The notes under the pieces were generated by a model. That model was not told the DNA's origin and searched no databases. It saw only the letters and a program-made list of their open reading frames with translations. Position numbers and translations under genes: made by a program. From contig PLYP01000005.1 of assembly GCA_003153395.1 (NCBI GenBank), positions 21,701 to 85,700 on the forward strand: DNA of 64,000 nucleotides, read 5' to 3'. Source of the stretch: Candidatus Saccharimonadota bacterium (GTDB lineage: Bacteria; Patescibacteriota; Saccharimonadia; Saccharimonadales; UBA4665). Shown here piece by piece: positions 5,351 to 24,193 of this stretch; within the stretch, counting starts at the first letter, position 1, and each line of letters begins with the position of its first letter.

Positions 5351-6481
5351 CTAACTCTTTTTAACTTTTTCCCAGGGCAAGTCTGCCTTACCAAAGTGGC
5401 CGTAAGCAGAAGTTTGCGAGTAGATTGGTCTTCTTAGATCAAGCGTTTCAATAATCCCTTTTACCGAGGTATCTATTAACTTGTCCTTAAATGCATATAA
5501 ATCATTCTCAGTTACCTTTGCTGTCCCAAAAGTTTCAATAGTCTGCATTAAAGGTCTGGGCTGACCAATAACATAAGCTAGTCCAACTTCGCATTTGTCA
5601 GCAAGTCCGCTAGCTACAATATTCTTGGCAATATATCTAGCTGCATATGCGCCGCTTCGATCTACTTTAGAGGGATCTTTACCGCTAAATGCACCGCCGC
5701 CTACGCGGGCATAGCCTCCGTAAGTATCAACTACAATTTTTCTTCCAGTTAGTCCGGCGTCACTTTCTGGACCGGGGATGTGCCATAGCCCAGTGCCATT
5801 GACCGTAATATTTTCTTCCGACGGCATTACGAATTTAAATGAATCCAATACTGGTTTAAGTATTTTCTCTATTGATTCAGAGCGTACTTTTTCAGCTGAA
5901 GTTTCTTCGTTGTGAGCCATAGCTAGCACTAATTTTTCTACTGCTACAGGCTTACCGCCTTCATATCTTATTGTTACCTGAGCTTTGCCATCCGGTCTCA
6001 ACCAATCTATTTCTTTGCTTTCTCTGGCTGCGTCTATCCTCTTTGTGAGAGCATGAGCTAGAGCGATAGGTAGCGGCATAAGTTCTGGCGTTTCATTAAC
6101 CGCAAACCCGAACATCATGCCCTGGTCTCCAGCGCCGTCCTGATCAACTCCTATGGATATTTCTGGTGATTGCTTGTGAACGTCGTTGCTAAATTCAGAT
6201 TCATCACTAAAACCCCACGCCGGTACTGAATAACCAAGCTGTCGAACTTTTTCACAGGCAACATGCTGGAAATTTATATCGGCATTCGTTTTTATTTCTC
6301 CAAATAAGGCAATTTTGTTAGCACCTGCAACAGTCTCTATAGCAGTATGGCTATTGGGATCCTGGGCCAGTGCTGCATCTACTATGGCGTCACTTATGGC
6401 GTCACATATTTTATCCGGATGACCAGCACAAACTGATTCACTCGTGAAGTAGTTTATAAAGTCTTGTACGTTATCTGACAT
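5351..6481 (-). CDS. metK: S-adenosylmethionine synthetase
   Basis: FTSESVCAGHPDKICDAISDAIVDA, GAGDQGMMFGFA, GGGAFSGKDPSKVDRSGAY signature blocks. Confidence 0.97.
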   Translation of the reverse strand: MSDNVQDFINYFTSESVCAGHPDKICDAISDAIVDAALAQDPNSHTAIETVAGANKIALFGEIKTNADINFQHVACEKVRQLGYSVPAWGFSDESEFSNDVHKQSPEISIGVDQDGAGDQGMMFGFAVNETPELMPLPIALAHALTKRIDAARESKEIDWLRPDGKAQVTIRYEGGKPVAVEKLVLAMAHNEETSAEKVRSESIEKILKPVLDSFKFVMPSEENITVNGTGLWHIPGPESDAGLTGRKIVVDTYGGYARVGGGAFSGKDPSKVDRSGAYAARYIAKNIVASGLADKCEVGLAYVIGQPRPLMQTIETFGTAKVTENDLYAFKDKLIDTSVKGIIETLDLRRPIYSQTSAYGHFGKADLPWEKVKKS

Positions 6482-6489
6482 AAAAATAT

Positions 6490-6642
6490 CCTCTCTGCTT
6501 AATTATTTCTAGCTAGGAAAGGATATAGTCTTAACATATCTTTCCCGCTAAATCGGGCTAGATGGAGCACCTTACTTACTTTAGTGTAGGTTGCTGGCGG
6601 TTCAGCGAGCTAGTTCTCTCCCCGCGCTCTTTATATTTAAAT
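6490..6642 (-). promoter_or_regulatory. SAM-I (S-box) riboswitch in the metK leader
   Basis: The minus-strand leader reads UUAAAUAUAAAGAGCGCGGGGAGAGAACUAGCUCGCUGAACCGCCAGCAACCUACACUAAAGUAAGUAAGGUGCUCCAUCUAGCCCGAUUUAGCGGGAAAGAUAUGUUAA. It contains the AGAG, GAGGGA-like, GCAACC and GGUGC cores, a P4 hairpin CCCG/CGGG, and P1 closure UUAAAUAU/AUAUGUUAA. Downstream, AUAUCCU can pair with the AGGAUAU that contains the SD, directly before a U-run and the ATG. Confidence 0.75.
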
Positions 6643-9753: not shown

Positions 9754-9827
9754 TGGGGATTGGCCAAGCGGTAAGGCACTGGGTTCTGGTCCCAGGATCG
9801 GGGGTTCGAATCCCTCATCCCCAGCCA
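9754..9827 (+). tRNA. tRNA-Gln (anticodon CUG), CCA encoded
   Basis: Cloverleaf folded by hand. Acceptor TGGGGAT/ATCCCCA, D-arm GCC-AAGCGGTAA-GGC, anticodon stem CTGGG/CCCAG with loop TTCTGGT, T-arm GGGGG-TTCGAAT-CCCTC, discriminator G then CCA. TATAAT lies at 9735-9740. Confidence 0.93.
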
Positions 9828-10762: not shown

Positions 10763-13555
10763 ATGAACTCTGATATACAGCGGCTGGCTCCTGACAAGGT
10801 TTATGGCAAGCTTTCAACGACGACTCAAGGATTAAGCGAATTAGAAGTGGAAACTCGCAGGCAACGCTTTGGTAATAACATAATTGAAGAGTTTGTCCGA
10901 ACCGGATACTACGCCAGGTTGATTGCTAACTTTACGCACATGATGGCTGTCCTACTATGGGCGGGTGGAGCCATAGCATTCATCGCAGGCATGCCGCAAC
11001 TTGGCATAGCTATATGGCTGGTTAATATTATCAACGGTGTATTCAGCTTTTGGCAGGAATATCGCGCGGAAAAAGCCACTCAGACTTTACAGAAATTGCT
11101 TCCGCAAAAGGCCGTAGTTATCCGTAGTGGGGTGGAGCAAAGCGTACTAGCAGACGAACTAGTTCCGGGTGATGTTATCGTACTGTCTCAAGGCGACCAT
11201 ATCTCAGCTGACGCCCGACTGGTAAGTGAGGCCGAGCTGCGGGTTGATCAGTCAATCCTTACAGGCGAGTCTGAGCCTGTACCGAAAGCCTCGTTGGCCA
11301 TTAGCCAAGAAAATTTGACAGCCGTCGAAGTTCCCAACCTGGTTTTTGCAGGAACAAACGTGGTGGCGGGTAATGGTCGGGCCGTGGTCTTTGCCACTGG
11401 CATGGATAGGGAGTTGGGCAAGATAGCCCATTTAACTCAGTCACTACCTCAAGACCTGTCGCCACTTCAAAAAGAAATGCAGACCGCTACAAAAATTATT
11501 ACGATCATGGTAATACTGATAGGCGGCTTTTTCTTCTTACTCGCAATCACTTTTGGACATATTAACTTTACAGACAGCGCAATTTTTACCCTAGGAATGA
11601 TAGTGGCGTTTGTGCCAGAGGGCATGCTACCCACCGTAACCTTAGCCCTGGCTATAAGTAGCCAGCGCATGTCCAAGCGAAATGCCCTAATAAAGAGGCT
11701 GTCATCCGTCGAAACGCTCGGCTGCACTACTGTTATTTGTTCCGATAAGACCGGCACATTAACTAAGAATGAAATGACTGTCCATGACATATGGCTGCCA
11801 CCATCTGCTTCAGCTGGTAAGTCGGGCAACCGACTAAGCGTGACTGGGACCGGTTACGGCGTAGAAGGTGAGATAATGCATCACGGCAAAATCTATTCAC
11901 CGGAGCAGGAAACCGGCCTCCATGAACTTTTGCAAGCTGCCCTGCTATGCAACAACGCACGACTAGTGGCTTCGACTGATGAGAGCGCCCATTGGAGCGT
12001 CTTGGGCGACCCAACGGAGGCAGCCCTGCTAGTGGCGACCCAAAAGGGTGGATTGGATCTACAGTTGGAGCTGGCACATTCGCCGCGCATTGACGAGCTA
12101 CCGTTTGAGTCAAGCCGCAAGCGCATGAGCACCATCCACCAAGTTTATGACGAAGGACAACCTACTTTGGATAGGGTAGCTTTGGCTAAGGGTTCGCCGC
12201 TTGAAACCCTCAGTTTATGTACGAATGTTCTGCAAAACGGTAAGGCGGTGCCGCTTAGTAGTGAACTGCGTGCTAGTATAGTGGCTGCCAACGACCAGTA
12301 TGCCCGGCAGGGGCTGAGGGTGTTGGCCGTGGCCTCCCGAAAGTTGCCAAGAAAGTTAAAGGAAATTTCAGCTGTCAATGTCGAGCAAGACTTAACGTTC
12401 CTAGGGCTGATTGCCATGATGGATCCACCTAGGCCAGAGGTTATTGAAGCGGTCAAGGCCTGCCAGAGTGCCGGAGTCCGGATCATCATGATCACCGGTG
12501 ATTACGGATTAACGGCCGAAAGTATAGCCAAACAGATTGGTATTACCCGCAAAAGGATACGAGTTGTGTCTGGCAGTGAACTTGACTACATGGATGATAA
12601 CAAGTTGCGCAACGTACTTGCCCATGAAGTCATCTTTGCCCGGAGCTCGCCACGGCATAAACTGCGAATTGTCGCTACCCTTCAGGGCCTAGGCCACATA
12701 GTCGCCGTAACCGGTGATGGCGTTAATGATGCTCCGGCACTAAAAAAAGCAGATATTGGTGTGGCGATGGGATGTAAAGGCACAGACGTAGCGAAAGAAG
12801 CCGCAGACATGATATTAACAGATGATAACTTCGCGTCAATTGTAAGTGCTATCGAAGAGGGACGAGCCGTATATGCCAACATAAGGAAGTTTGTCACCTA
12901 CATATTTACGAGCAATGCGCCTGAAGCCGTGCCTTTTATTATCTTCGTATTATCTAGAGCAAGTATTCCCCTAGCGCTTACTGTCATGCAGGTCATCTTC
13001 ATTGACTTAGGCACTGATATGGCCCCTGCCTTAGCCCTCGGCGCTGAACCGCCTGAGCCTGATGTCATGAATAGACCGCCGCGAAACCGTAAAGAGCATA
13101 TTGTTACACGATCCGTACTCATACGGTCTTACGTATATTTAGGGCTAATACAAAGCGGTGCGGCAATGGTTGCCTTCTTCTTTATGTATTGGATGCACGG
13201 CTACCATGGCTTCTTCGGGCTCCCTCACACCGGTAACCTGTACAGATCAGCGACAGCCATGACCCTGGCCACAGTGGTTGCCACTCAAGTTGGCAACCTC
13301 TTCGCTCAACGTACGGAAAGGCTTTCCAGCTTCAAGATAAAAGCCTTCGTCAATCCTTTAATCTGGATAGGAATTGCTGTTGAGCTGACGCTTATCTTTT
13401 CGGTTATCTACATCCCATTTTTCCAGCACATCTTTCAAACAGCTTCACTACCGCCAAGCAGCTGGTTATTCATATTTGCTTGGACGCCGTTGCTGCTGAT
13501 GGCCGATGAGTTAAGAAAATGGATCGTAAGAAGAAGAGCCGCTACCGCTGGCTGA
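10763..13555 (+). CDS. cation-transporting P-type ATPase, type II (SERCA/CtpF-like)
   Basis: TGES, TM4 PEGMLP, phosphorylation site DKTGTLT, TGDGVNDAPALKKADIGVAMG hinge, 10 TM pattern. Confidence 0.93.
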   Translation: MNSDIQRLAPDKVYGKLSTTTQGLSELEVETRRQRFGNNIIEEFVRTGYYARLIANFTHMMAVLLWAGGAIAFIAGMPQLGIAIWLVNIINGVFSFWQEYRAEKATQTLQKLLPQKAVVIRSGVEQSVLADELVPGDVIVLSQGDHISADARLVSEAELRVDQSILTGESEPVPKASLAISQENLTAVEVPNLVFAGTNVVAGNGRAVVFATGMDRELGKIAHLTQSLPQDLSPLQKEMQTATKIITIMVILIGGFFFLLAITFGHINFTDSAIFTLGMIVAFVPEGMLPTVTLALAISSQRMSKRNALIKRLSSVETLGCTTVICSDKTGTLTKNEMTVHDIWLPPSASAGKSGNRLSVTGTGYGVEGEIMHHGKIYSPEQETGLHELLQAALLCNNARLVASTDESAHWSVLGDPTEAALLVATQKGGLDLQLELAHSPRIDELPFESSRKRMSTIHQVYDEGQPTLDRVALAKGSPLETLSLCTNVLQNGKAVPLSSELRASIVAANDQYARQGLRVLAVASRKLPRKLKEISAVNVEQDLTFLGLIAMMDPPRPEVIEAVKACQSAGVRIIMITGDYGLTAESIAKQIGITRKRIRVVSGSELDYMDDNKLRNVLAHEVIFARSSPRHKLRIVATLQGLGHIVAVTGDGVNDAPALKKADIGVAMGCKGTDVAKEAADMILTDDNFASIVSAIEEGRAVYANIRKFVTYIFTSNAPEAVPFIIFVLSRASIPLALTVMQVIFIDLGTDMAPALALGAEPPEPDVMNRPPRNRKEHIVTRSVLIRSYVYLGLIQSGAAMVAFFFMYWMHGYHGFFGLPHTGNLYRSATAMTLATVVATQVGNLFAQRTERLSSFKIKAFVNPLIWIGIAVELTLIFSVIYIPFFQHIFQTASLPPSSWLFIFAWTPLLLMADELRKWIVRRRAATAG

Positions 13556-13601
13556 CAAATAGCTGCATTATATTGTTTCAAAGTGTCTCGTCTCGGGCAC
13601 A

Positions 13602-13623
13602 GTTCTAGGCCGGTATGCTCAGC
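13602..13623 (+). repeat. island intergenic motif, copy 1
   Basis: GTTCTAGGCCGGTATGCTCAGC, 47 nt after the ATPase stop. Confidence 0.6.
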
Positions 13624-13671
13624 CACGATAGATTCGAGCTAAAGTCAAATATGTAGAGTGGTTATCTATTA

Positions 13672-13701
13672 TTGTTCTAGGCCTGGACACTCAGCTATAA
13701 T
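13672..13701 (+). promoter_or_regulatory. candidate sigma-70 promoter for the SDR gene (overlaps island motif copy 2)
   Basis: TTGTTC (13672-13677), an 18-nt spacer, then TATAAT (13696-13701), about 60 nt upstream of the ATG at 13761. Confidence 0.4.
13674..13695 (+). repeat. island intergenic motif, copy 2
   Basis: GTTCTAGGCCTGGACACTCAGC, followed immediately by TATAAT. Confidence 0.55.
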
Positions 13702-13760
13702 AGACTTTAAAGTGACACCGCTTCATAATCATATTAACAAAGTCGCTAGAGGTGCTAATA

Positions 13761-14495
13761 ATGCCAGCAGAGAGCCGTAACCTTAAAGGAAATGTCATTG
13801 CCATTACAGGCGCTAGTTCGGGTATTGGACGGGAGACCGCCAGGCTGTTGGTTGAAGCAGGCGCGAAAGTAGCGCTTGGAGCTCGCCGTCTAGATAGACT
13901 TAATGAGCTAGTTAAAGAGCTTGGAAAAGATAGTGCCGTCGCTATCCAAATGGACGTAACAAGCGCTGATGAAAATAATAAATTTATTACGAAGACAATC
14001 GAGACATTTGGACGCCTAGACAGCGTAGTTGCTAACGCCGGCATTGGATATTATGGAGGGATAACTGACATCTCAGATGGTGAACTGACAAACATGATTG
14101 CCGTAAATTATTCCGGTACGATTTGGACAATTAGAGCTGCGGTTCCGGAATTCCGTAAAACTGGAGCTGGCGATATTGTGATCGTATCCAGTGTTGCTGG
14201 CTTTCGCGGTGGAGCTAATGAAGCTGTTTATGCGGGAACTAAGTTCGCTCAAATCGGGCTAGCAGGCTCCCTCGATCGCGAATTAACTCCTGAAGGCATA
14301 CGAGTTACCGCCATATGTCCTGCAGGTACCAATACCGAGTTCGCTATTGGAGCAGGTCGTACGGAGGGTGATCCAGCTTTGAACGACTACATGAGCCCCG
14401 CAGACGTAGCTTTCCAGATTGTTACTGCACTCCAACAGCCGCGTCGCATCAGGACTTCTGTCTGGATGACTTGGAGTATGGCTCAATTTAGTTAA
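13761..14495 (+). CDS. short-chain dehydrogenase/reductase (SDR)
   Basis: TGASSGIG cofactor motif, NAG, catalytic S...YAGTK. The ATG at 13761 is preceded by AGAGGTG; the ORF track uses a GTG at 13752. Confidence 0.88.
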   Translation: MPAESRNLKGNVIAITGASSGIGRETARLLVEAGAKVALGARRLDRLNELVKELGKDSAVAIQMDVTSADENNKFITKTIETFGRLDSVVANAGIGYYGGITDISDGELTNMIAVNYSGTIWTIRAAVPEFRKTGAGDIVIVSSVAGFRGGANEAVYAGTKFAQIGLAGSLDRELTPEGIRVTAICPAGTNTEFAIGAGRTEGDPALNDYMSPADVAFQIVTALQQPRRIRTSVWMTWSMAQFS

Positions 14496-14540
14496 TACGG
14501 CACATAACTGCCAAAAAGCTATACAAGCAGAATTAAGTGT

Positions 14541-14675
14541 ATGAATAAGTTATGGCATGAGCAACACAAAATGCCAAAGAATACGACACATGAAGAGCGG
14601 CTGAAGTGGCACCTAGAACATCAAAGGCAATGTGGTTGTAGGCCAATTCCAAAAAGTCTGCAAAATGGGGTATAA
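14541..14675 (+). CDS. 44-aa conserved-looking small protein (CxC, His/Lys-rich)
   Basis: ATG...TAA frame read by hand: MNKLWHEQHKMPKNTTHEERLKWHLEHQRQCGCRPIPKSLQNGV. It is below the ORF-track size cut-off. It replaces the unconvincing antisense ORF 14533..14727. Confidence 0.5.
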   Translation: MNKLWHEQHKMPKNTTHEERLKWHLEHQRQCGCRPIPKSLQNGV

Positions 14676-14677
14676 AG

Positions 14678-14698
14678 GTTCCAGACCGGCATGAGTAG
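14678..14698 (+). repeat. island intergenic motif, copy 3
   Basis: GTTCCAGACCGGCATGAGTAG, starting 3 nt after the mini-ORF stop. Confidence 0.5.
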
Positions 14699-14779
14699 TC
14701 AAGGATATGTACGCCATAAAAGTCCACAAGGGATAGGAGTTCAGGATTACGTAGTGTTTTAACTTGCTACAATTAAGGT

Positions 14780-15040
14780 ATGGTCAGATTTATTATTGAC
14801 GTGCGAGAGCCTGAAGAATACTCAGCCGGGCATGTTGCAAACGCACTAAACATACCTCCCTCGGAATTGATGAGTGGGACTGAAAAGCTTAGCGCTATAC
14901 CGAAAGACGCAGAAGTAATTTTGTATTGCAAAACTGGAAGCCGTTCTAACGTATCGAAAAATATTTTGGAGTCCATGGGTTATGTGAACGTTATAAATGG
15001 GATCAACAAAGATCACGTTGCAGCCAAGTACGGTTATTAA
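14780..15040 (+). CDS. single-domain rhodanese-like sulfurtransferase
   Basis: DVREPEEYSAGHVANALNIP and active-site loop CKTGSRS. SD AAGG at 14775-14778. Confidence 0.88.
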   Translation: MVRFIIDVREPEEYSAGHVANALNIPPSELMSGTEKLSAIPKDAEVILYCKTGSRSNVSKNILESMGYVNVINGINKDHVAAKYGY

Positions 15041-15097
15041 CAATCAACGTCTGTAGGATCCAGGCTTTCAGCATCAACCCGAACGAAATCCAAAAAG

Positions 15098-15119
15098 GTT
15101 CCTTACCGGTATGCTCAGC
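15098..15119 (+). repeat. island intergenic motif, copy 4
   Basis: GTTCCTTACCGGTATGCTCAGC, 58 nt after the rhodanese stop. Confidence 0.6.
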
Positions 15120-15176
15120 TAAGAGCACATATTTTACGCCTTATCCACTAAGTATTTGTTAGATTTACAGGTTAGT

Positions 15177-16958
15177 CTAGTTTTTTTTAGTGCGCCAATC
15201 TTTCCATATTAAACGGTGGATTGGAATTAATTTGGGTATGTCTCGAATTCCCGGTATAAATGGCACCAAAAGTAACAACAAGGTTGCAAGACTAGTAAGA
15301 TAAATAGCGATTAAGTCTACATTAGCTGATGTACTGAAACTGGGCACTTGATACCAAAGTGTGTATAGCCACAGCCATGGTTGTCCCGGAAACGAACCGG
15401 TTTCATTCATCACCCCCCATTGAGTTCCAGTCAAATGTTCAGATTTGGCAATTGATGAAAAATAGCTACCATCTTCTATAAATAACAGTGGTTTTGTGTA
15501 ATTGGTGCCGTAAAATGGCTGCTGTGCTAATAAATCAGCATCTATAGCTCCGCTTTGGGCCATCGACAATTCACTAGCAATCATAACCGGTAGAGGACCG
15601 TCGTCAGCCTTCGTTACTGTCGGTATCCCCGACTTAAACGTCACGCTGCTTGTAACTGCATTTAAGTAGGATTGAGCCCAGGCTTGCTGCTGCTTAGATG
15701 TAGCTCGATTATAGTCAGAGAGCGCTTTTGTGAGAGTTGAGTTCCCTAAAGCTACTGTTGAGAGCGGGGATAATACAAACGTTTGAGCTGGGTTTATTGG
15801 TTGGTGAACTCCGGCAAGCAATTGCGGTGAAACTCCGATGCGCTGTACATTTGAAGACCCATTATTATAGGGCGGCCCATACTTAGCTGTTTCACTGGTA
15901 CCTGCTAACTCACTCGCTGCTGTTCCCATAAAATCAGCGGGAGCAATCTTTGACCAAGTTGCAACAGTTACGGGCGGTTCATCTGGGGAAGATAGTAAAC
16001 TAGCAAGGCTAAATACTAGAAATAAAACTATTATTGTTGCGAGTGTTCCTTCTTTTAATATATCGTAGCGTCTTGTTGGCCCTTTCCAGTCTGCGGCTTC
16101 GGCAGCTTTCAGCGCTCGTCTAGCCGCTCGTCCATGCGCTCTTTGAATCGGATGAGAAACTCCCCTTACTCTTACCAATATAATATGTACTGCCACAAAT
16201 AATATTAGAACCAGCGGGATCACGATAATATGCCAAGTGAGTATTTGGCCAAAGTTCATAAGATTAAAAAATGATCCCAAGCCAGTAGCATTAATAGCAT
16301 CTTTACCGTTCGCAGCTATCCATTGTGAATCATAATTCTGCTGAGATAAGTACCCTGTGAAGCATTCTAGAATGGATACCCCAAAAGCTAAAACTCCTGT
16401 CATCCATGTTAATGCTCGTTTGCCTCGCCAAGCTGCCATCCAAAACTTACCCCATAAGTGAATAACCATAAAGGCCATAAATAGCTCGACACTCCATAGG
16501 TGCACACTATTCACAAAGTGCCCTAATGGACTATCGTGCCACCAATTAACCCCACCAATTGCCAGTACCACGCCGGAAGCCATCAACACGCCTAAAGCAG
16601 CTAGAGTTGCAACGCCAAATACATAGATCCATGATGAAACGTAAGCCGGTTGACGATCGGGCAGCAGCTTGCCTGGTGGTAGTATCCTTAGGAAAAAGTT
16701 TCTTACTTTGTTAGTCCACATGCCATTGGGCTTACTGGCAAATGGCCCATGATTGACGTCTTGGTTGTCAGATTCAGTATCTTTATCAGCCTCATTATCT
16801 CGACTTTTTGGAAACGGCAATAGAATTGCCAGTCCAAAAATAACTACCATAGTAGCTATAATTATCAAATTTGCTATAGATATCGTGAAAATTGACCAAT
16901 GGATGTAATGCTGAGGGTGATTTAAGTTTACAAGAGAAGCGATTGTTTCGATATTCAT
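15177..16958 (-). CDS. cytochrome b (bc/b6f-type N-terminal domain)-like membrane protein with a large divergent C-terminal region
   Basis: Helix B H-x13-H (HLWSVELFMAFMVIH), then GKFWMAAWRGKRALTWMTG (compare FxxGxFRxPRExxW). Helix D H-x14-H (HIIVIPLVLILFVAVH). A further TM helix, then about 230 aa of non-TM sequence and C-terminal TM helices. Confidence 0.75.
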   Translation of the reverse strand: MNIETIASLVNLNHPQHYIHWSIFTISIANLIIIATMVVIFGLAILLPFPKSRDNEADKDTESDNQDVNHGPFASKPNGMWTNKVRNFFLRILPPGKLLPDRQPAYVSSWIYVFGVATLAALGVLMASGVVLAIGGVNWWHDSPLGHFVNSVHLWSVELFMAFMVIHLWGKFWMAAWRGKRALTWMTGVLAFGVSILECFTGYLSQQNYDSQWIAANGKDAINATGLGSFFNLMNFGQILTWHIIVIPLVLILFVAVHIILVRVRGVSHPIQRAHGRAARRALKAAEAADWKGPTRRYDILKEGTLATIIVLFLVFSLASLLSSPDEPPVTVATWSKIAPADFMGTAASELAGTSETAKYGPPYNNGSSNVQRIGVSPQLLAGVHQPINPAQTFVLSPLSTVALGNSTLTKALSDYNRATSKQQQAWAQSYLNAVTSSVTFKSGIPTVTKADDGPLPVMIASELSMAQSGAIDADLLAQQPFYGTNYTKPLLFIEDGSYFSSIAKSEHLTGTQWGVMNETGSFPGQPWLWLYTLWYQVPSFSTSANVDLIAIYLTSLATLLLLLVPFIPGIRDIPKLIPIHRLIWKDWRTKKN

Positions 16959-17034
16959 ATCCTATATTCTACCATTCGAACTATCATTTTAGTGTGATCT
17001 CTGTCAATGTATTTATGCTAATCAGCTCAGAACG

Positions 17035-17598
17035 CTATTTTGTGTCAGTTAATTGTTGTCGGCCATATTTGTTTACTACCTTGCAGAGCAAAATACCGAA
17101 TGCAAGTTGAAAAATTACCTGTCCTTGGAGTAGTAGGCCATGTGGTTTTGGCAAGTAATAAAATGAGATAAGTCCGCCGCATAATTCAATGCAAACCAAG
17201 CCAAGATTTTGCCAGCTAAAGTCTATTTTTACCAATAGCCAGATGGACAATACTAGCTGGAATACAAATAGGGTTGTTCCGATAGCAGTATGGATTGGAT
17301 TCACTAATGTGTGAGGAGTTAATACTAATCCTGTGAGCAATAATGCCATGACTCGTAAACCGTAAGCAACGTAGTTATGAAGCTTATTATTATTGACTAA
17401 TACCCTGGCAGCCTCCCAATAAAAGTAAGCGTTCAGAAAAAAGGCCGCAGAATATGGAATAATCGTATTTTTAAAGCTACCAAAATAGCTAAGTCCGTCA
17501 TTAGCAGAGAGACCGGCTGGACGGATAAGTATACATATCAGCAGTAATGTGAACGCTGCAATTAGACCGTAAGATATGCTACGTGCTGCTTGAGTCAT
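17035..17598 (-). CDS. polytopic membrane protein, unknown function (upstream of the cytochrome b-like gene)
   Basis: 187 aa with about 6 hydrophobic helices, same strand, 76 nt from the next gene. Confidence 0.5.
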   Translation of the reverse strand: MTQAARSISYGLIAAFTLLLICILIRPAGLSANDGLSYFGSFKNTIIPYSAAFFLNAYFYWEAARVLVNNNKLHNYVAYGLRVMALLLTGLVLTPHTLVNPIHTAIGTTLFVFQLVLSIWLLVKIDFSWQNLGLVCIELCGGLISFYYLPKPHGLLLQGQVIFQLAFGILLCKVVNKYGRQQLTDTK

Positions 17599-17620
17599 GT
17601 TAATTATAGCCCTAGTCTAT

Positions 17621-17634
17621 GGTATACCCTCAGC
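17621..17634 (+). repeat. island intergenic motif, copy 5 (3' half)
   Basis: GGTATACCCTCAGC followed by TGTAAT. It shares GGTAT..CTCAGC with copies 1 and 4. Confidence 0.4.
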
Positions 17635-17762
17635 TGTAATAGCGTTAAGTAGACATGTGTGTGATGCGGATCATCGTCTTTTGGAGACATTGCTTACAGA
17701 CAGTCATTTTGCATCAGTACATACTGGGTAATGTCAACTTAATATGCATGGGAAGGAGGCCT

Positions 17763-17852
17763 ATGATATCGAGAGCTTATTGTCATGAAACGAGAATCGA
17801 AAGAGATGCAGAGAACTACGCGTCAAGCAAATTAGTAAGGGGGATATCATGA
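17763..17852 (+). CDS. candidate 29-aa upstream ORF, translationally coupled (ATGA) to the next gene
   Basis: Strong SD GGAAGGAGG (17750-17758), then the ATG at 17763. MISRAYCHETRIERDAENYASSKLVRGIS. Its stop TGA overlaps the ATG at 17849. Confidence 0.3.
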   Translation: MISRAYCHETRIERDAENYASSKLVRGIS

Positions 17853-18247
17853 AATTATCATTGAAGGATGTAATAAACGCACTACTCGCTATCGGGGGTG
17901 CGGCCGTTGTGTATGCTAAATTTTATAGCTATTCATGGTCGGTGATAGGTAGCTGGCGCAGTGCGGTCGCTGTACTAGCGCTAATTGGTCTAGTTATGTT
18001 TGCATTTAGTAGCTTCAATTTTGCCAACCGAAGCATACTTAATGTCACCGAAATGATGTTAGGAGTTGTGGCAATTGGACTAGTAATTGTAGGGGTCATC
18101 ATGACCAGCCAATTTGTGTTCTATAGTCTGGCTATCGTCCTTGGGCTAGAGTGGTTGGTTGACACAGCCCGTCATGCTCGTCATAGCTGGATCGGCGAAG
18201 AGGGCTACGGAACAACTACGTTTCACCACCATGCCCATGTTCACTGA
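17849..18247 (+). CDS. small membrane protein with a His-rich C-terminus
   Basis: Four predicted TM helices. The tail reads HARHSW...TTTFHHHAHVH. SD AAGGGGG upstream. Confidence 0.55.
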   Translation: MKLSLKDVINALLAIGGAAVVYAKFYSYSWSVIGSWRSAVAVLALIGLVMFAFSSFNFANRSILNVTEMMLGVVAIGLVIVGVIMTSQFVFYSLAIVLGLEWLVDTARHARHSWIGEEGYGTTTFHHHAHVH

Positions 18248-18315
18248 AAGTTAGTATTGTAAACGTATACGCAGAAAATACCACCGGTAATTAAGTTAAT
18301 AACGAGGGGGAAGCT

Positions 18316-18744
18316 ATGCAGTTAGTACGATACAATCCGCTCCGTGATTTACAAAGGATGGAACGGGATCTAGATAAGTTTTGGGAGGATGACTGGGGTT
18401 TATTGCCTTCGCTCGCTGACTCGACGACTATGGATCTTTACGAAGAAGATGGCAAATTAGTAGCCGAGTTGAGTCTGCCGAACTTCACGAAGGATGAGGT
18501 AAAGGTAACCACCGATGAAGGGGTGCTGGAAGTTTCAGCCGAACACAGCGAGAAAGAAGAGGGCAAAGGCAAGCGACGGTATTACTTCCGAGAAAGCAGT
18601 AACCGATATTTGCGCCGTGTCAAATTGCCAGAAGGCGTGAGAATCGACAATACCGAGGCTGTATTCAAAGACGGGGTATTGAGGGTAGCGATGCCGACTA
18701 CTACCTCTCCCAAGATTAAAGCCAAAACTGTACCTATTAAGTAA
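18316..18744 (+). CDS. Hsp20/alpha-crystallin family small heat-shock protein
   Basis: Alpha-crystallin domain pattern: DLYEEDGKLVAELSLPNFTKDEVKV...VLEVSAEH...F.RRVKLPEGV...A.FKDGVLRVAMP. Confidence 0.92.
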   Translation: MQLVRYNPLRDLQRMERDLDKFWEDDWGLLPSLADSTTMDLYEEDGKLVAELSLPNFTKDEVKVTTDEGVLEVSAEHSEKEEGKGKRRYYFRESSNRYLRRVKLPEGVRIDNTEAVFKDGVLRVAMPTTTSPKIKAKTVPIK

Positions 18745-18747
18745 ACC

Positions 18748-19416
18748 GTGATGATCTACCGCAACCGCCAACAGGCAGGCAAAGAACTGGCTAAAGCGCT
18801 CATACGCTATAAGGGAGAAGCCGCCGTTGTACTGGCCTTGCCTCGCGGCGGAATAGTCTTAGGTGCAGAGGTTGCGAAAAGTCTTCGAGTACCACTGGGT
18901 CTCGTCTTAGTCCGCAAGATCGGACACCCATCGTATGCCGAATATGCAGTCGGTGCTATAGCTGAGGATGAAACACCGATTTACAATCAGTCTGAAATCG
19001 CTAATATCGACAAAACCTGGCTTAAGCATGCAGAGACAGCTGCCAGAGAACTTATTGTGCGGCGACGGGAACAGTACTATGGGAAAGACTTCGTAGCACC
19101 CAGTTTGTTAAACAAGACCGCGATCATTGTCGATGACGGTATTGCTACCGGACTAACTATGCAGGCTGCAGTGAAGGCTGTCAGAAACAAGCATTCCAAA
19201 CAAGTGATAGTGGCCGTACCAGTTGCCTCTCAGGAAAGTGTCGACGCGTTAAAAGATAGTGTTGATCAGCTCATAGTACTAGACAATCCTGAAAACTTTT
19301 TAGGCGCCGTCGGCGCTCACTACCAGGAATTTGATCAAGTTAACGATGAAGTAGTGGGAAGACTGCTTCGGGAGGTACATGATGACATGCTCCAAAACAC
19401 TGCCACGCATCGATAA
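18748..19416 (+). CDS. phosphoribosyltransferase-family protein (stand-alone type I PRT domain)
   Basis: PRPP-binding loop AIIVDDGIATGLTMQAA. It starts 3 nt after the Hsp20 stop, so it is probably co-transcribed. Confidence 0.8.
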   Translation: MMIYRNRQQAGKELAKALIRYKGEAAVVLALPRGGIVLGAEVAKSLRVPLGLVLVRKIGHPSYAEYAVGAIAEDETPIYNQSEIANIDKTWLKHAETAARELIVRRREQYYGKDFVAPSLLNKTAIIVDDGIATGLTMQAAVKAVRNKHSKQVIVAVPVASQESVDALKDSVDQLIVLDNPENFLGAVGAHYQEFDQVNDEVVGRLLREVHDDMLQNTATHR

Positions 19417-20719: not shown

Positions 20720-22291
20720 ATGATGCAAGTAACTATTGTGAAGAGCTGGCTAAGTCAGGTTAGGCATCACACTAGGTTGTTATTCATACTACTGGGATCT
20801 GCTTTTATAAGTGTTTGGACTTTGCTTCGTTTCTTTAATAGCACTTCTACTTATGATTTAACAACGCAGCAAGTGCTCGCGCATTCTTGGCTTCACGGCT
20901 ACGCGGCACCTATTAGTCTTGGCCCCACCAACTATCTATTAAAGATTTTCCTGATATATATGCCAGCCGACTTATTGCCTGGGTCTCCGCGTCTAAAATT
21001 AATACTTCTGACAATCTTGATCAATGTTGCAACGTACATATTATTGTTCATTGTTTTACAGAAAATCCTAGCTGAATTCAAGATTGAAGTTAGCAGTGCT
21101 TTCTATAGTGCCATGCTATGGTTATCCATTGTTGCAGGTTCGGTTTTTTGGATAGAGTTCGCAAATTCCAGAAACTTAGAGGTGGCCGGAGGCATGTTTT
21201 TAGTTTTATATAGTTTACGCGTATTAAGAGAACCGACTAAACGGAATACTGTTGGCTTAACATTACTAGCAACATTACTATTTTTTGCTGACACCTTGCA
21301 GGTATATATGGTGGCGTTACCTATTTTGGTTTACGCTTTGCTGCTTGCACTCTTTAAAAAAACGTCATGGAAGCGGATTACAACTATATTTGTTATTTTT
21401 AGTTGTGGAGTTATAGCAGCCCTTATTTTAACTTTTATCGCTAGGCATGTCTTAGATATTACTATTAGTAAAGCCGGGGCGGGTACCGTTCCGCAGGATG
21501 TCTCACAAATATCCCGAGCTGCCCAAGCAGCCATCAGGTCTACAGTGCGCCAGTTAAGTGGTGGCATAGACGCTGGCAAACCAAGGGAAGTAGTAAATTT
21601 GCTATTTATAGTACTAGGAGTAATAAGTTTTACCCTAGGAATTCTGAGGCGCAAAGTTGCACTTCGTTTTGGTCTATTTGTAGTTATCTTTTTAATCGTT
21701 GATGAATTGGTTTACATTTTTAGCGGCACAGCCTTACAGAGTGATACATCTCGTTATCTTGTCATGCTCGCACCTGTTATAGTTCTGGCATTAGCATCGC
21801 TGAGCTATTTATTTGAGCAATCCATAGTACCCAAACTAGTCGTAATAGGATTCATACTATTCAATGCATTTTTACTCAGCCATGCATTGATTCAGTCGTG
21901 GGACACAAGCTTTCCTAAAGACAGACATTTAGGTAGTGTCATGCGTTATTTGAATAATCATAATTACGCCTATGCTTTCAGCAGCATGGATAGCGCTACG
22001 CCACTAGCTTATTATGGTGGCGTTAAACACACTTTACTGCTGCCAGTTGCTTGTGGTGGCGGTAAACTGGTCCACGCCTATGCATTTAGGGACACTCATA
22101 TCGCCGTCGATAGTAACCCGTCTAAACTAGTACCAGTGATTTTAGATGGCCAAGCAATAATTAATGCGCCTAGTGTATGCACAGAACAGCCAATCGTCAA
22201 TCAGTTAGGTAAACCGGCAACAACTGAAACAACGGACGACGGCAGTAGCGTGCTTCTTTTTAGTAGTACTAGACTTTTAGGTCTCAAGTAA
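20720..22291 (+). CDS. large polytopic membrane protein (possible GT-C-type glycosyltransferase)
   Basis: 523 aa with at least 10 TM helices and a soluble C-terminal domain. The architecture resembles ArnT/PMT-like enzymes, but no catalytic motif was verified. Confidence 0.4.
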   Translation: MMQVTIVKSWLSQVRHHTRLLFILLGSAFISVWTLLRFFNSTSTYDLTTQQVLAHSWLHGYAAPISLGPTNYLLKIFLIYMPADLLPGSPRLKLILLTILINVATYILLFIVLQKILAEFKIEVSSAFYSAMLWLSIVAGSVFWIEFANSRNLEVAGGMFLVLYSLRVLREPTKRNTVGLTLLATLLFFADTLQVYMVALPILVYALLLALFKKTSWKRITTIFVIFSCGVIAALILTFIARHVLDITISKAGAGTVPQDVSQISRAAQAAIRSTVRQLSGGIDAGKPREVVNLLFIVLGVISFTLGILRRKVALRFGLFVVIFLIVDELVYIFSGTALQSDTSRYLVMLAPVIVLALASLSYLFEQSIVPKLVVIGFILFNAFLLSHALIQSWDTSFPKDRHLGSVMRYLNNHNYAYAFSSMDSATPLAYYGGVKHTLLLPVACGGGKLVHAYAFRDTHIAVDSNPSKLVPVILDGQAIINAPSVCTEQPIVNQLGKPATTETTDDGSSVLLFSSTRLLGLK

Positions 22292-23089: not shown

Positions 23090-24193
23090 TTGTTAAAATT
23101 AGCTGGTACCCCCGAAAACAAAAAAACAGTAATAAAGTCCTGCTCGGCTACTGAGCTGTCAAAAATGAAAATTCATTTAACTAAAAAGATATTATTATCT
23201 TATTTACACAATTTGCTTGTTGCCTTTTTTATATGTTTATCTTTAATTGTTTTAACTCTAATTGGACAGTCTACCTCAAAAGTAGCTAAGAGAAATGTTC
23301 ATGTAACAGTTAAACTAAGTCATTCAACTACTTCTAAAAAGAGTACTAAGCCCGTTAACGCGACTCCACCCACAGTAATAGCGAAATCGGTGCCCGCTCC
23401 AGTAAAAGCCGTTGCTCCTACACCCGTTCCAAGTAAGGTTATAACCCAAAAACCTGCTCCTGTAGTTGTGCCTTCGCCAGGCAGCAATGTTAGCAGTTTA
23501 ACCCCTTCGCCTTCTACGCCACCAGCTAATCCTAATAGCGGTCAGGGTAATTCAAATCCGGCACCGCAAACAAGTTATACATCAACTAATTGGTCAGGTT
23601 ATATGTCCAGTAATGCGGTATATACTGGAGTTTCGGCTTCATGGACTACGCCGCATGTTAGTGGAAACGGCTCTACTACTAGCGCTGATGCATCATGGAT
23701 AGGCATTGGCGGTGTTACAACAAATGATCTTATACAGGTGGGCACCGACAATATAGTTTCGGCTAGCGGGCAAGTATCTACTTCAGCCTTTTATGAATTA
23801 TTGCCTGATGCTTCAATTAATATCCCAAGCATGAGCGTTAGTCAGGGTGACTCTATGTCCGCAACACTGAATGAAATATCGTCAGGTCAATGGAATATAT
23901 ATATTATAGATAATACCTCTGGTCAGTCATTTACAGTTTCAGTACCATACGCATCAACTCATTCATCCGTTGAATGGATCGAGGAGGATCCCAGTTACTC
24001 CAGGTCTACACAAATACCGTTTGATACATATGGAAGTGTATTGTTTGCAAATGGATCCACTAAAGCAAATGGAAGTAATACCAATATTTCTACCAGTAAT
24101 ACTCAAGAAATAACTATGGTCAATGGTTCAGGTAATCCAATATCTACGCCATCAGCAATTAATGGTAGCAGCTTCTCTGTAACACAAAATTAA
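23090..24193 (+). CDS. membrane-anchored peptidase G1 (eqolisin / scytalidoglutamic peptidase family)
   Basis: STNWSGY, ASWIGIGG, LIQVGTD (catalytic Gln position), FYELLPD, VEWIEEDP (catalytic Glu position) and FDTYGSVLFANG align block-for-block with aspergilloglutamic peptidase. N-terminal TM helix plus a Pro/Ser/Thr/Val linker. The TTG at 23090 or the ATG at 23165 may be the real start. Confidence 0.8.
   Translation: MLKLAGTPENKKTVIKSCSATELSKMKIHLTKKILLSYLHNLLVAFFICLSLIVLTLIGQSTSKVAKRNVHVTVKLSHSTTSKKSTKPVNATPPTVIAKSVPAPVKAVAPTPVPSKVITQKPAPVVVPSPGSNVSSLTPSPSTPPANPNSGQGNSNPAPQTSYTSTNWSGYMSSNAVYTGVSASWTTPHVSGNGSTTSADASWIGIGGVTTNDLIQVGTDNIVSASGQVSTSAFYELLPDASINIPSMSVSQGDSMSATLNEISSGQWNIYIIDNTSGQSFTVSVPYASTHSSVEWIEEDPSYSRSTQIPFDTYGSVLFANGSTKANGSNTNISTSNTQEITMVNGSGNPISTPSAINGSSFSVTQN

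Follow-up and report, generated by a model that had tools for sequence, protein, structure and literature searches.

This study concerns a 64,000-nucleotide stretch of a Candidatus Saccharimonadota genome (contig PLYP01000005.1, positions 21,701 to 85,700; hereafter the window) and, within it, one open reading frame (ORF) at 15177-16958 on the minus strand. The ORF encodes a 593-residue protein with seven transmembrane helices, in which a small single-helix subunit, a b6-type di-haem cytochrome b and a large C-terminal region, here termed the C-module, follow one another on a single chain. Comparison with relatives in other phyla indicates that the protein is a triple fusion of three components: the small subunit, a short cytochrome b and the C-module. 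Residue numbers below refer to this protein, and the coordinates of its parts lie on the minus strand.

The identity of the N-terminal core as a cytochrome b of the b6 type, with two predicted bis-His haem sites, is statistically solid. The four-helix core (helices A-D, aa 81-271, 16146-16718) matches PF13631 with E 3.9e-12 in a Pfam scan of the 593-residue protein, scoring 46.9 bits where the cutoff is 27; PF00033, at 19.9 bits, stays below its cutoff of 27.2. A phmmer search of the PDB returns cytochrome b6 (1q90_B) as the top sequence match at E 1e-9, and Foldseek matches with a probability above 0.3 are all cytochromes b, which together place the N-terminal half in the cytochrome b fold. 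Helix B, HLWSVELFMAFMVIH, supplies H153 and H167 in H-x13-H spacing (16458-16502), and helix D, HIIVIPLVLILFVAVH, supplies H243 and H258 in the H-x14-H spacing of b6 and Gram-positive proteins (16185-16232). These four histidines, which a preliminary description of the DNA had already picked out with the same spacing, align with His86, His100, His187 and His202 of cytochrome b6, as counted off the printed alignment. Together with H147 they are invariant across 90 aligned full-length homologs, and both bis-His pairs recur in the cytochromes b of the split form described below. The W/R patch noted earlier after helix B, AAWRGKRALTW, lies at aa 175-185 in the bc loop, and the core closes with a b6-like end, RVRGVSHPI. 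On the electropositive (p) side of the membrane, the cd loop (TGYLSQQNYDSQWIAANGKDAINATG..., aa 200-238, 16245-16361) is highly conserved and aligns with the cd region that contributes to the quinol-oxidizing (Qo) pocket of cytochrome b6.

Around this recognizable core, many hallmarks of canonical complexes are missing. The 593-residue protein contains no PEWY-type Qo motif (P-x-W-Y/F). It also contains neither a CxxCH nor a CxGG haem-cn site, because C199 is its single cysteine; in manual alignment, the stretch of helix A that corresponds to the CxGG position of cytochrome b6 reads VFGV. PF00032, the C-terminal domain of cytochrome b, finds no match in the protein, and helices G and H are likewise absent. 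NCBIfam models for named relatives all score below their cutoffs: 39.4 against 325 for cytochrome b6 (NF002990), 27.7 against 500 for QcrB (NF050120), and 26.4 against 740 for SoxC (NF041076). The preliminary description was right that no PEWY is present and that a PADF sequence exists (aa 340-343). The suggestion that PADF might be a degenerate Qo motif does not stand, as it sits at the start of the soluble domain, remote from any transmembrane helix. On alignment, the positional equivalent of PEWY is instead the invariant PGQ-x-W-x-WL just before the last transmembrane helix.

The same holds for partner proteins. No ORF of at least 60 residues in the window carries a CxxCH or Rieske-type motif, and tblastn detects no homologs of COX1, COX2, UbiA or polyprenyl synthase there. 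Across 84 clustered loci of the fused form, on which all neighbour statistics below are based, no Rieske, cytochrome c or oxidase gene recurs beside the fused gene; none is called in 13 Pfam-annotated contexts either, except CtaG/SCO1 about 8 kb away in locus L002. The earlier statements that such genes are lacking nearby, and that this is not a standard bc complex, are thereby supported.

The C-terminal half is the least familiar part of the protein. The C-module (aa 290-593, 15180-16091) opens with a transmembrane helix at the position of cytochrome b helix E (aa 300-322, 15993-16061), preceded on the cytoplasmic side by a conserved YD(I/L)xKE. There follows an extracytoplasmic domain (aa 323-545, 15324-15992), mostly alpha-helical with one beta-hairpin; hydropathy, which gives the seven transmembrane helices of the protein, measures this domain at 223 residues between the sixth and the seventh, close to the roughly 230 estimated at the outset. 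Near its end lies the most conserved motif of the family, QWGVMNETGSFPGQPWLWLYTLWYQVP (aa 513-539, 15342-15422), the positional counterpart of PEWY and the ef helix, in which W514, G515, N518, E519, G521, P524, G525, Q526, W528, W530, L531 and Y536 are invariant in fused and split forms alike. The last transmembrane helix (aa 547-570, 15249-15320) ends in VPFIPG and is followed by a K/R-rich cytoplasmic tail. The loops flanking the transmembrane helices on either side of the extracytoplasmic domain are themselves K/R-rich, consistent with a cytoplasmic location.

The C-terminal half finds no Pfam match even at E values up to 10, and a C-module profile finds no sequence relative in the PDB. Free-standing versions are abundant all the same: phmmer with aa 290-593 recovers 911 cluster representatives, many of them separate proteins of about 320-340 residues that align end-to-end at 33-53% identity, and a profile search recovers more than 5,900 free-standing proteins, some of them on contigs of up to 4.1 Mb and all annotated merely as hypothetical. 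Organism labels are rare among them and point to a Chloroflexi and to an Acidimicrobiales metagenome-assembled genome (MAG). In Chloroflexi and Acidimicrobiales the parts form a cassette—a 50-63-residue ORF with one transmembrane helix, a short cytochrome b of 219-257 residues (PF13631) and a C-module of 313-350 residues—whose gene order was read in four independent contexts. The cassette genes overlap at their stop and start codons and are translationally coupled. Downstream of one such cassette, on a 4.1-Mb contig (L005:9698-13309), there are genes encoding ApbE, a Ferric_reduct-type membrane protein, a NuoF-like protein (Complex1_51K) and ferredoxin, a set that is not seen in the other cassette contexts and may represent a separate flavin/haem electron-transfer operon.

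The small first gene of the cassette has its counterpart in the extra N-terminal transmembrane helix of the window protein (aa 8-52, 16803-16937), where LVNLNHPQHYIHWSIFTISIANLIIIATMVV aligns with LVNLNGSGHYVHWGFIQISVANLVLIGLMVV of the small ORF in L005. Because the C-module is free-standing elsewhere and the small ORF is homologous to aa 8-52, the window protein is best described as a fusion of all three genes. The same homology, shared with a separate subunit in other phyla, argues that the 593-residue start is correct and that the public ENA gene call (P0002, 557 residues) is too short: it begins at M37, omitting 16851-16958 and truncating the first transmembrane helix. The protein is no isolated oddity: Actinomycetota commonly carry this fused gene, and its parts form a three-gene cassette in Chloroflexi and Acidimicrobiales.

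In topology and gene order, the family is certainly analogous to cytochrome b6 and its subunit IV, PetD. A pairwise hhalign comparison sets helix E against helix E, the PEWY...FQIL stretch against W-WL...YQIP, and the end of helix F, VPFIEN, against the VPFIPG of the last transmembrane helix; the aa 513-539 motif falls opposite PetD PEWYFYPVFQIL. Homology of the C-module to subunit IV is plausible but unproven. A structure was predicted with AlphaFold2 (AF2) from a mixed alignment of fused and split forms, which reached a predicted local distance difference test (pLDDT) score of 71 and a predicted template-modelling (TM) score, or pTM, of 0.65; a shallow alignment had given a pLDDT of 64. Confidence is mostly 85-98 over aa 330-480 of the soluble domain, with a dip to about 50-65 at aa 360-390. 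It is lowest in the cd loop (pLDDT below 50 at aa 207-236) and at aa 513-527, the regions that overlap the most conserved motifs. This conserved and poorly modelled p-side pocket may be a site that needs a bound ligand. Against the PDB, the model matches b6 chains with Foldseek probabilities of 0.97-1.0 and target TM-scores of about 0.5 over some 211 columns, and the best-scoring matches are long actinobacterial QcrB and bc1 chains. None of the PDB matches from Foldseek is a structural relative of the soluble domain; the query there was the whole uncropped model, and cytochrome b matches dominate.

The fused gene has many neighbours across its carriers but no constant companion: the most frequent neighbour occurs in 21 of the 84 loci, and no partner gene is conserved. 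In the window, the layout given in the preliminary description is as found. A 187-residue membrane protein with about five transmembrane helices (17035-17598, minus strand) lies 76 nucleotides upstream on the same strand, and a convergent single-domain rhodanese of 86 residues (14780-15040, plus strand; PF00581, E 3.4e-17) lies on the other side. Within the 76-nucleotide gap, the best sigma70-like promoter candidate is TTGACA-16-GATAGT (16980-17007, minus strand), a consensus match alone at 10 of 12 positions. The 187-residue protein, which had been put forward for modelling as a complex partner, belongs to no Pfam or NCBIfam family and appears in no neighbour cluster of the 84 loci; its sole homolog, a weak one at 26% identity, lies upstream of the gene in the Saccharibacteria locus L010, and the other low-GC (guanine-plus-cytosine) loci lack it. 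The rhodanese fares no better as a candidate, with no homologs near the fused gene in other loci. Divergent from the 187-residue gene is one for a 132-residue protein of no known family (17849-18247, plus strand), with about four transmembrane helices and a His-rich tail, TTTFHHHAHVH, which may bind metal. By these observations the fused cytochrome b looks self-contained, in keeping with the stand-alone character proposed for it earlier; in three low-GC loci, cyo quinol-oxidase genes do stand no more than a few kb from it.

The family is large, with more than 3,000 homologs. The best 120 span the whole window protein, with coverage of 93-100% and identity of 64-100%. Among GTDB species representatives, at least 587 matches were confirmed as relatives. 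Among the best 80 of these, every assessable locus carries the fully fused gene, and the carriers comprise two Saccharibacteria MAGs, five further low-GC MAGs, about 70 Actinomycetota MAGs and one MAG labelled Gemmatimonadota. The actinobacterial carriers include Acidimicrobiales, Streptosporangiaceae and Jatrophihabitans, and many come from bog, fen, palsa, peat or soil samples. The taxonomic map that emerges is one of a fused form in peat and soil Actinomycetota and in Saccharibacteria, and a split form in Chloroflexi and Acidimicrobiales; the architecture is mainly actinobacterial and no peculiarity of a respiration-less lineage.

Identity between the window protein and its actinobacterial relatives is 56-69% in the C-module and 57-66% along the full chain, which by general experience is high for members of different phyla. 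A neighbour-joining tree with concatenated split cassettes as the root groups the eight low-GC sequences in a single, weakly supported clade amid high-GC ones, and in eight other low-GC loci the GC content of the gene exceeds that of its flanks by 1-5 points. Fused and split forms are both present in Actinomycetota; we therefore infer an origin of the fusion in that phylum and a single transfer to Saccharimonadales, which probably received the fused gene from Actinomycetota. Saccharibacteria live as epibionts of Actinomycetota. Plasmid carriage was looked for in PLSDB, where no copy was matched.

In the window, the gene lies inside a segment of higher GC content (10763-19416; 0.458 against 0.39) that also encodes a P-type cation ATPase, a short-chain dehydrogenase/reductase, the rhodanese, two small membrane proteins, HSP20 and a phosphoribosyltransferase, and that is possibly a co-acquired stress island. 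Its gene set resembles actinobacterial dormancy-regulon neighbourhoods, and its P-type ATPase is 48% identical to a gene adjoining the fused cytochrome b in a Streptosporangiaceae locus (L051). The island starts about 0.9 kb past a tRNA-Gln(ctg) gene at 9754-9827. Integration linked to this tRNA was considered and set aside, since no att-like repeat was found for all that the tRNA gene stands at the edge.

Gene context offers a further clue to function in Actinomycetota. Recurrent neighbours there are NarL-type response regulators, GAF sensor kinases, Usp, Acg-type nitroreductases, PNPOx-like proteins, Crp-type regulators and zinc-dependent alcohol dehydrogenases, a set that resembles the DevR/DosR dormancy set. 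We searched 450-nucleotide windows for the DevR core GGGAC-N4-GTCCC with at most one mismatch, using shuffled controls. In the high-GC loci (L012-L089), such palindromes occur in 44 of 69 upstream windows and in 9 of 73 downstream ones, and the 55 hits observed compare with a shuffle mean of 3.3 and a maximum of 11. Most boxes lie 120-170 nucleotides upstream of the fused gene, with GGGACCAAGGTCCC as the typical form, and fit the consensus class of DevR/OsdR sites (PMC5069765). The split cassettes have essentially no such box upstream. From this context we infer that the actinobacterial fused gene, with its predicted sites, belongs to the DevR/DosR response to hypoxia and redox stress.

For soil Saccharibacteria, published work documents NDH-2, haem O synthase and a quinol oxidase of the cyo type, and proposes that haem and quinone are both scavenged (PMC6031116, PMC8407418); the group is reported to lack haem synthesis (PMC6031116). 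Three low-GC, Saccharibacteria-type loci connect the fused gene with such a chain. In L083 (1-6838), the gene directly preceding the fused one, on the same strand, encodes a polyprenyl synthase; divergent from this synthase gene stand cyoA (COX2 with the COX_ARM typical of quinol-oxidase subunit II), cyoB (COX1) and a UbiA fragment. In L023 (3042-6909), UbiA is followed by polyprenyl synthase and then by the fused gene, again with the polyprenyl synthase immediately upstream on the same strand. In L056 (1-6897), a COX1 fragment and UbiA lie about 3 kb upstream. The arrangement in L083 and L023 suggests a small respiratory gene cluster. The view that such a protein would be remarkable in a lineage without respiration thus rests on a weak premise, because the family is large and mainly actinobacterial and some Saccharibacteria loci place it near quinol oxidase genes.

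What, then, might the protein do? Our preferred reading, which we hold with moderate confidence, is that it serves as a self-contained, Rieske-independent, non-bifurcating, quinol-linked di-haem carrier of electrons across the membrane, used under oxygen limitation in Actinomycetota. Two stacked b haems would pass electrons between a site on the electronegative (n) side, b6-like and without haem cn, and a p-side pocket formed by two conserved elements, the cd loop and the invariant QWGxMNETG-YPGQ-W-WL motif. The new extracytoplasmic domain would cap this pocket at the place where a Rieske head usually docks, and the likely substrate would be the membrane quinol/quinone pool. There is no Rieske centre, and bifurcation and a Q cycle are therefore unlikely. 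In Saccharimonadales, the fused protein would plug into a minimal chain of NDH-2, quinone and bo3 oxidase, with scavenged haem. A bolder version, which we offer tentatively and consider doubtful as a whole, is that cassette and fused form constitute an unrecognised class of self-sufficient cytochrome b: Rieske-independent and menaquinol-linked, with the outward domain as catalytic or acceptor site, switched by DosR under oxygen limitation to keep the quinone pool turning, and passed from actinobacterial hosts to their Saccharibacteria epibionts within a respiratory and stress toolkit.

A number of observations weigh against this carrier role or against its supporting steps. That the protein binds haem and quinone, and in which direction electrons would flow, are predictions, and there is no Rieske centre to accept or donate electrons on the p side. 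The extracytoplasmic domain is novel and absent from family databases; conserved Cys, His and Met residues are all missing from it, and no structural relative hints at its role. The AF2 model is only moderate at its pLDDT of 71. HMMER finds no match between the C-module and subunit IV in Pfam or the PDB, with or without the inserted domain, and the hhalign match to a real PetD profile, co-linear over 94 columns, is weak (probability 16%, P 0.0016). As regards transfer, bootstrap values in the neighbour-joining tree are low, at 62 of 100 for monophyly of the low-GC clade and 42 of 100 for its nesting. As regards regulation and respiration in Saccharibacteria, no DevR-type box was found at the window gene or in 11 low-GC loci, and in most of the other Saccharimonadales-type loci the fused gene is solitary amid variable genes and not beside respiratory ones.

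Other explanations account for parts of the same evidence. The clear relationship of the core to cytochrome b6 and QcrB, and the label 'quinol-cytochrome oxidoreductase complex cytochrome b subunit' that the Joint Genome Institute gives to some homologs, would suit an ordinary Rieske/cytochrome b complex whose Rieske protein and cytochrome c, or some other acceptor, are encoded elsewhere in the genome. We regard this as most improbable. Not only are the PEWY-type motif, helices G and H and a PF00032 match missing, with the QcrB and b6 models far from their cutoffs, but no Rieske or cytochrome c gene recurs in the 84 loci or is called in the 13 annotated contexts. A domain of 220 residues also fills the ef-loop position, where the Rieske head would dock, and Actinomycetota with the fused gene would normally possess a canonical qcrCAB operon with its own QcrB as well. 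Nor do we think it likely that a role in haem storage, haem chaperoning, import or sensing would explain the gene, or that it is a decaying relic in Saccharibacteria. A non-electron-transfer role would be attractive for a haem auxotroph, as Saccharibacteria are reported to be (PMC6031116), and the solitary gene does keep company with variable, accessory-type neighbours such as toxin-antitoxin pairs. Decay is unlikely because conservation is very strong from end to end: the best 120 homologs share 64-85% identity, and dozens of residues on the two membrane faces are invariant. Both bis-His sites are kept, moreover, in a transmembrane electron-transfer arrangement, and the majority of carriers are Actinomycetota and Chloroflexi with large genomes (contigs up to 4.1 Mb) that presumably do not depend on scavenged haem. 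We therefore place this explanation among the very unlikely ones.

Closer to the preferred carrier role is an outward-facing redox safety device, whose p-side domain would take up an oxidant or reductant from outside the cytoplasm, for instance superoxide, species derived from peroxide, or humic or exogenous quinones, while its haems would relay electrons into or out of the quinone pool. The analogy, drawn from general background, is to the superoxide:quinone oxidoreductase CybB or to MsrQ, which feeds a periplasmic partner. Carriers named by source are almost all Actinomycetota, Chloroflexi and Saccharibacteria; these groups are generally regarded as monoderm, and the domain would therefore be exposed. 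The bias of habitats to peat, bog and soil, the stress-related neighbours (Usp, HSP20, AhpC, nitroreductases and PNPOx-like proteins), the DosR boxes upstream in Actinomycetota and a weak similarity to DUF4405 are all in its favour. Set against them are the lack of conserved redox-active or metal-binding residues in the very domain that would do the capturing, and the lack of a conserved partner gene. We consider this explanation unlikely, if the most credible of the alternatives to a quinol-linked carrier.

Comparison with described systems brings out how the family combines the familiar and the new. With PetB/PetD of the b6f complex and the split QcrB/QcrC of Firmicutes it shares the four-helix core, the H-x13-H and H-x14-H ligands, the R-x-LTW of the bc loop, a b6-like C-terminal end, and the arrangement of a short cytochrome b followed by a membrane protein with helices at the E and F positions; with PetD, the C-module is co-linear in the weak hhalign match. 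It differs from both in having no Rieske or cytochrome f/c partner, no haem-cn cysteine, no PEWY, no helix G and no PF00032 match, and in possessing an extra small subunit with one transmembrane helix and an extracytoplasmic domain of about 200 residues inserted at the ef-loop position. QcrB of the actinobacterial bcc-aa3 supercomplex (7q21_B, 7e1v_B, 6adq_B) provides the best Foldseek matches, over about 500 aligned columns, and comes from the same phylum as most family members. The resemblance ends there, with TM-scores of 0.26-0.29 and an NCBIfam QcrB score of 27.7 bits against 500; moreover, the qcrCAB operon groups QcrB with genes for a Rieske protein and for a di-haem cytochrome c, whereas the window family is encoded alone.

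Two further groups deserve mention. ExtP (NF040969), one of the b6-type cytochromes b that belong to Rieske-less quinol oxidoreductase modules, is the best NCBIfam match to the core (E 5.6e-13), at 49.2 bits against a cutoff of 290, and the window protein is not a member. ExtP nonetheless sets a precedent for a b6-like cytochrome b that functions without a Rieske protein. ExtP-type systems pair their cytochrome b with multihaem c-type cytochromes or iron-sulfur proteins; the window family shows no such partner. Subfamily G of the short cytochromes b is a heterogeneous assembly that includes sequences of Ca. Saccharibacteria and Patescibacteria, gene fusions and operons of unknown function (Dibrova et al. 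2017, PMC5600118). The passages of that account covered here do not describe the architecture, the C-module, the small subunit, or DosR or cyo contexts (PMC5600118). The literature searched yielded no published account of such a cytochrome b, whether as Rieske-less or as linked to DosR. The family appears uncharacterised, with generic domain-level names alone and no Pfam model for the C-module.

Should the carrier role prove true, thousands of genomes of peat and soil Actinomycetota and Chloroflexi, and many of Saccharibacteria, would carry a cytochrome b enzyme outside the described complexes. It would add a missing membrane component to the physiology of actinobacterial dormancy, for which the association with DosR boxes provides a concrete and testable entry point: induction by hypoxia in culturable actinomycetes. 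It would also extend the small set of apparently transferred respiratory genes of Saccharibacteria beyond the cyo operon, and would bear on how electron transport is organized in an epibiont auxotrophic for haem and quinone. Whatever the function, the series from three genes to one provides a clean example of the modular evolution of cytochrome b complexes.

Elsewhere in the window, a 523-residue polytopic membrane protein without a Pfam match is encoded just beyond the island (20720-22291, plus strand). An S-adenosylmethionine (SAM) riboswitch (RF00162, 56 bits) lies at 6533-6639 on the minus strand, directly upstream of the gene for S-adenosylmethionine synthetase (5351-6481, minus strand). 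The window, whose contig bears a name (WOOD18-1) that suggests wood as the source of the sample, also encodes a peptidase A4 family protein (23090-24193, plus strand; E 1e-30), a member of a family known mainly from fungi and acidophilic microbes.

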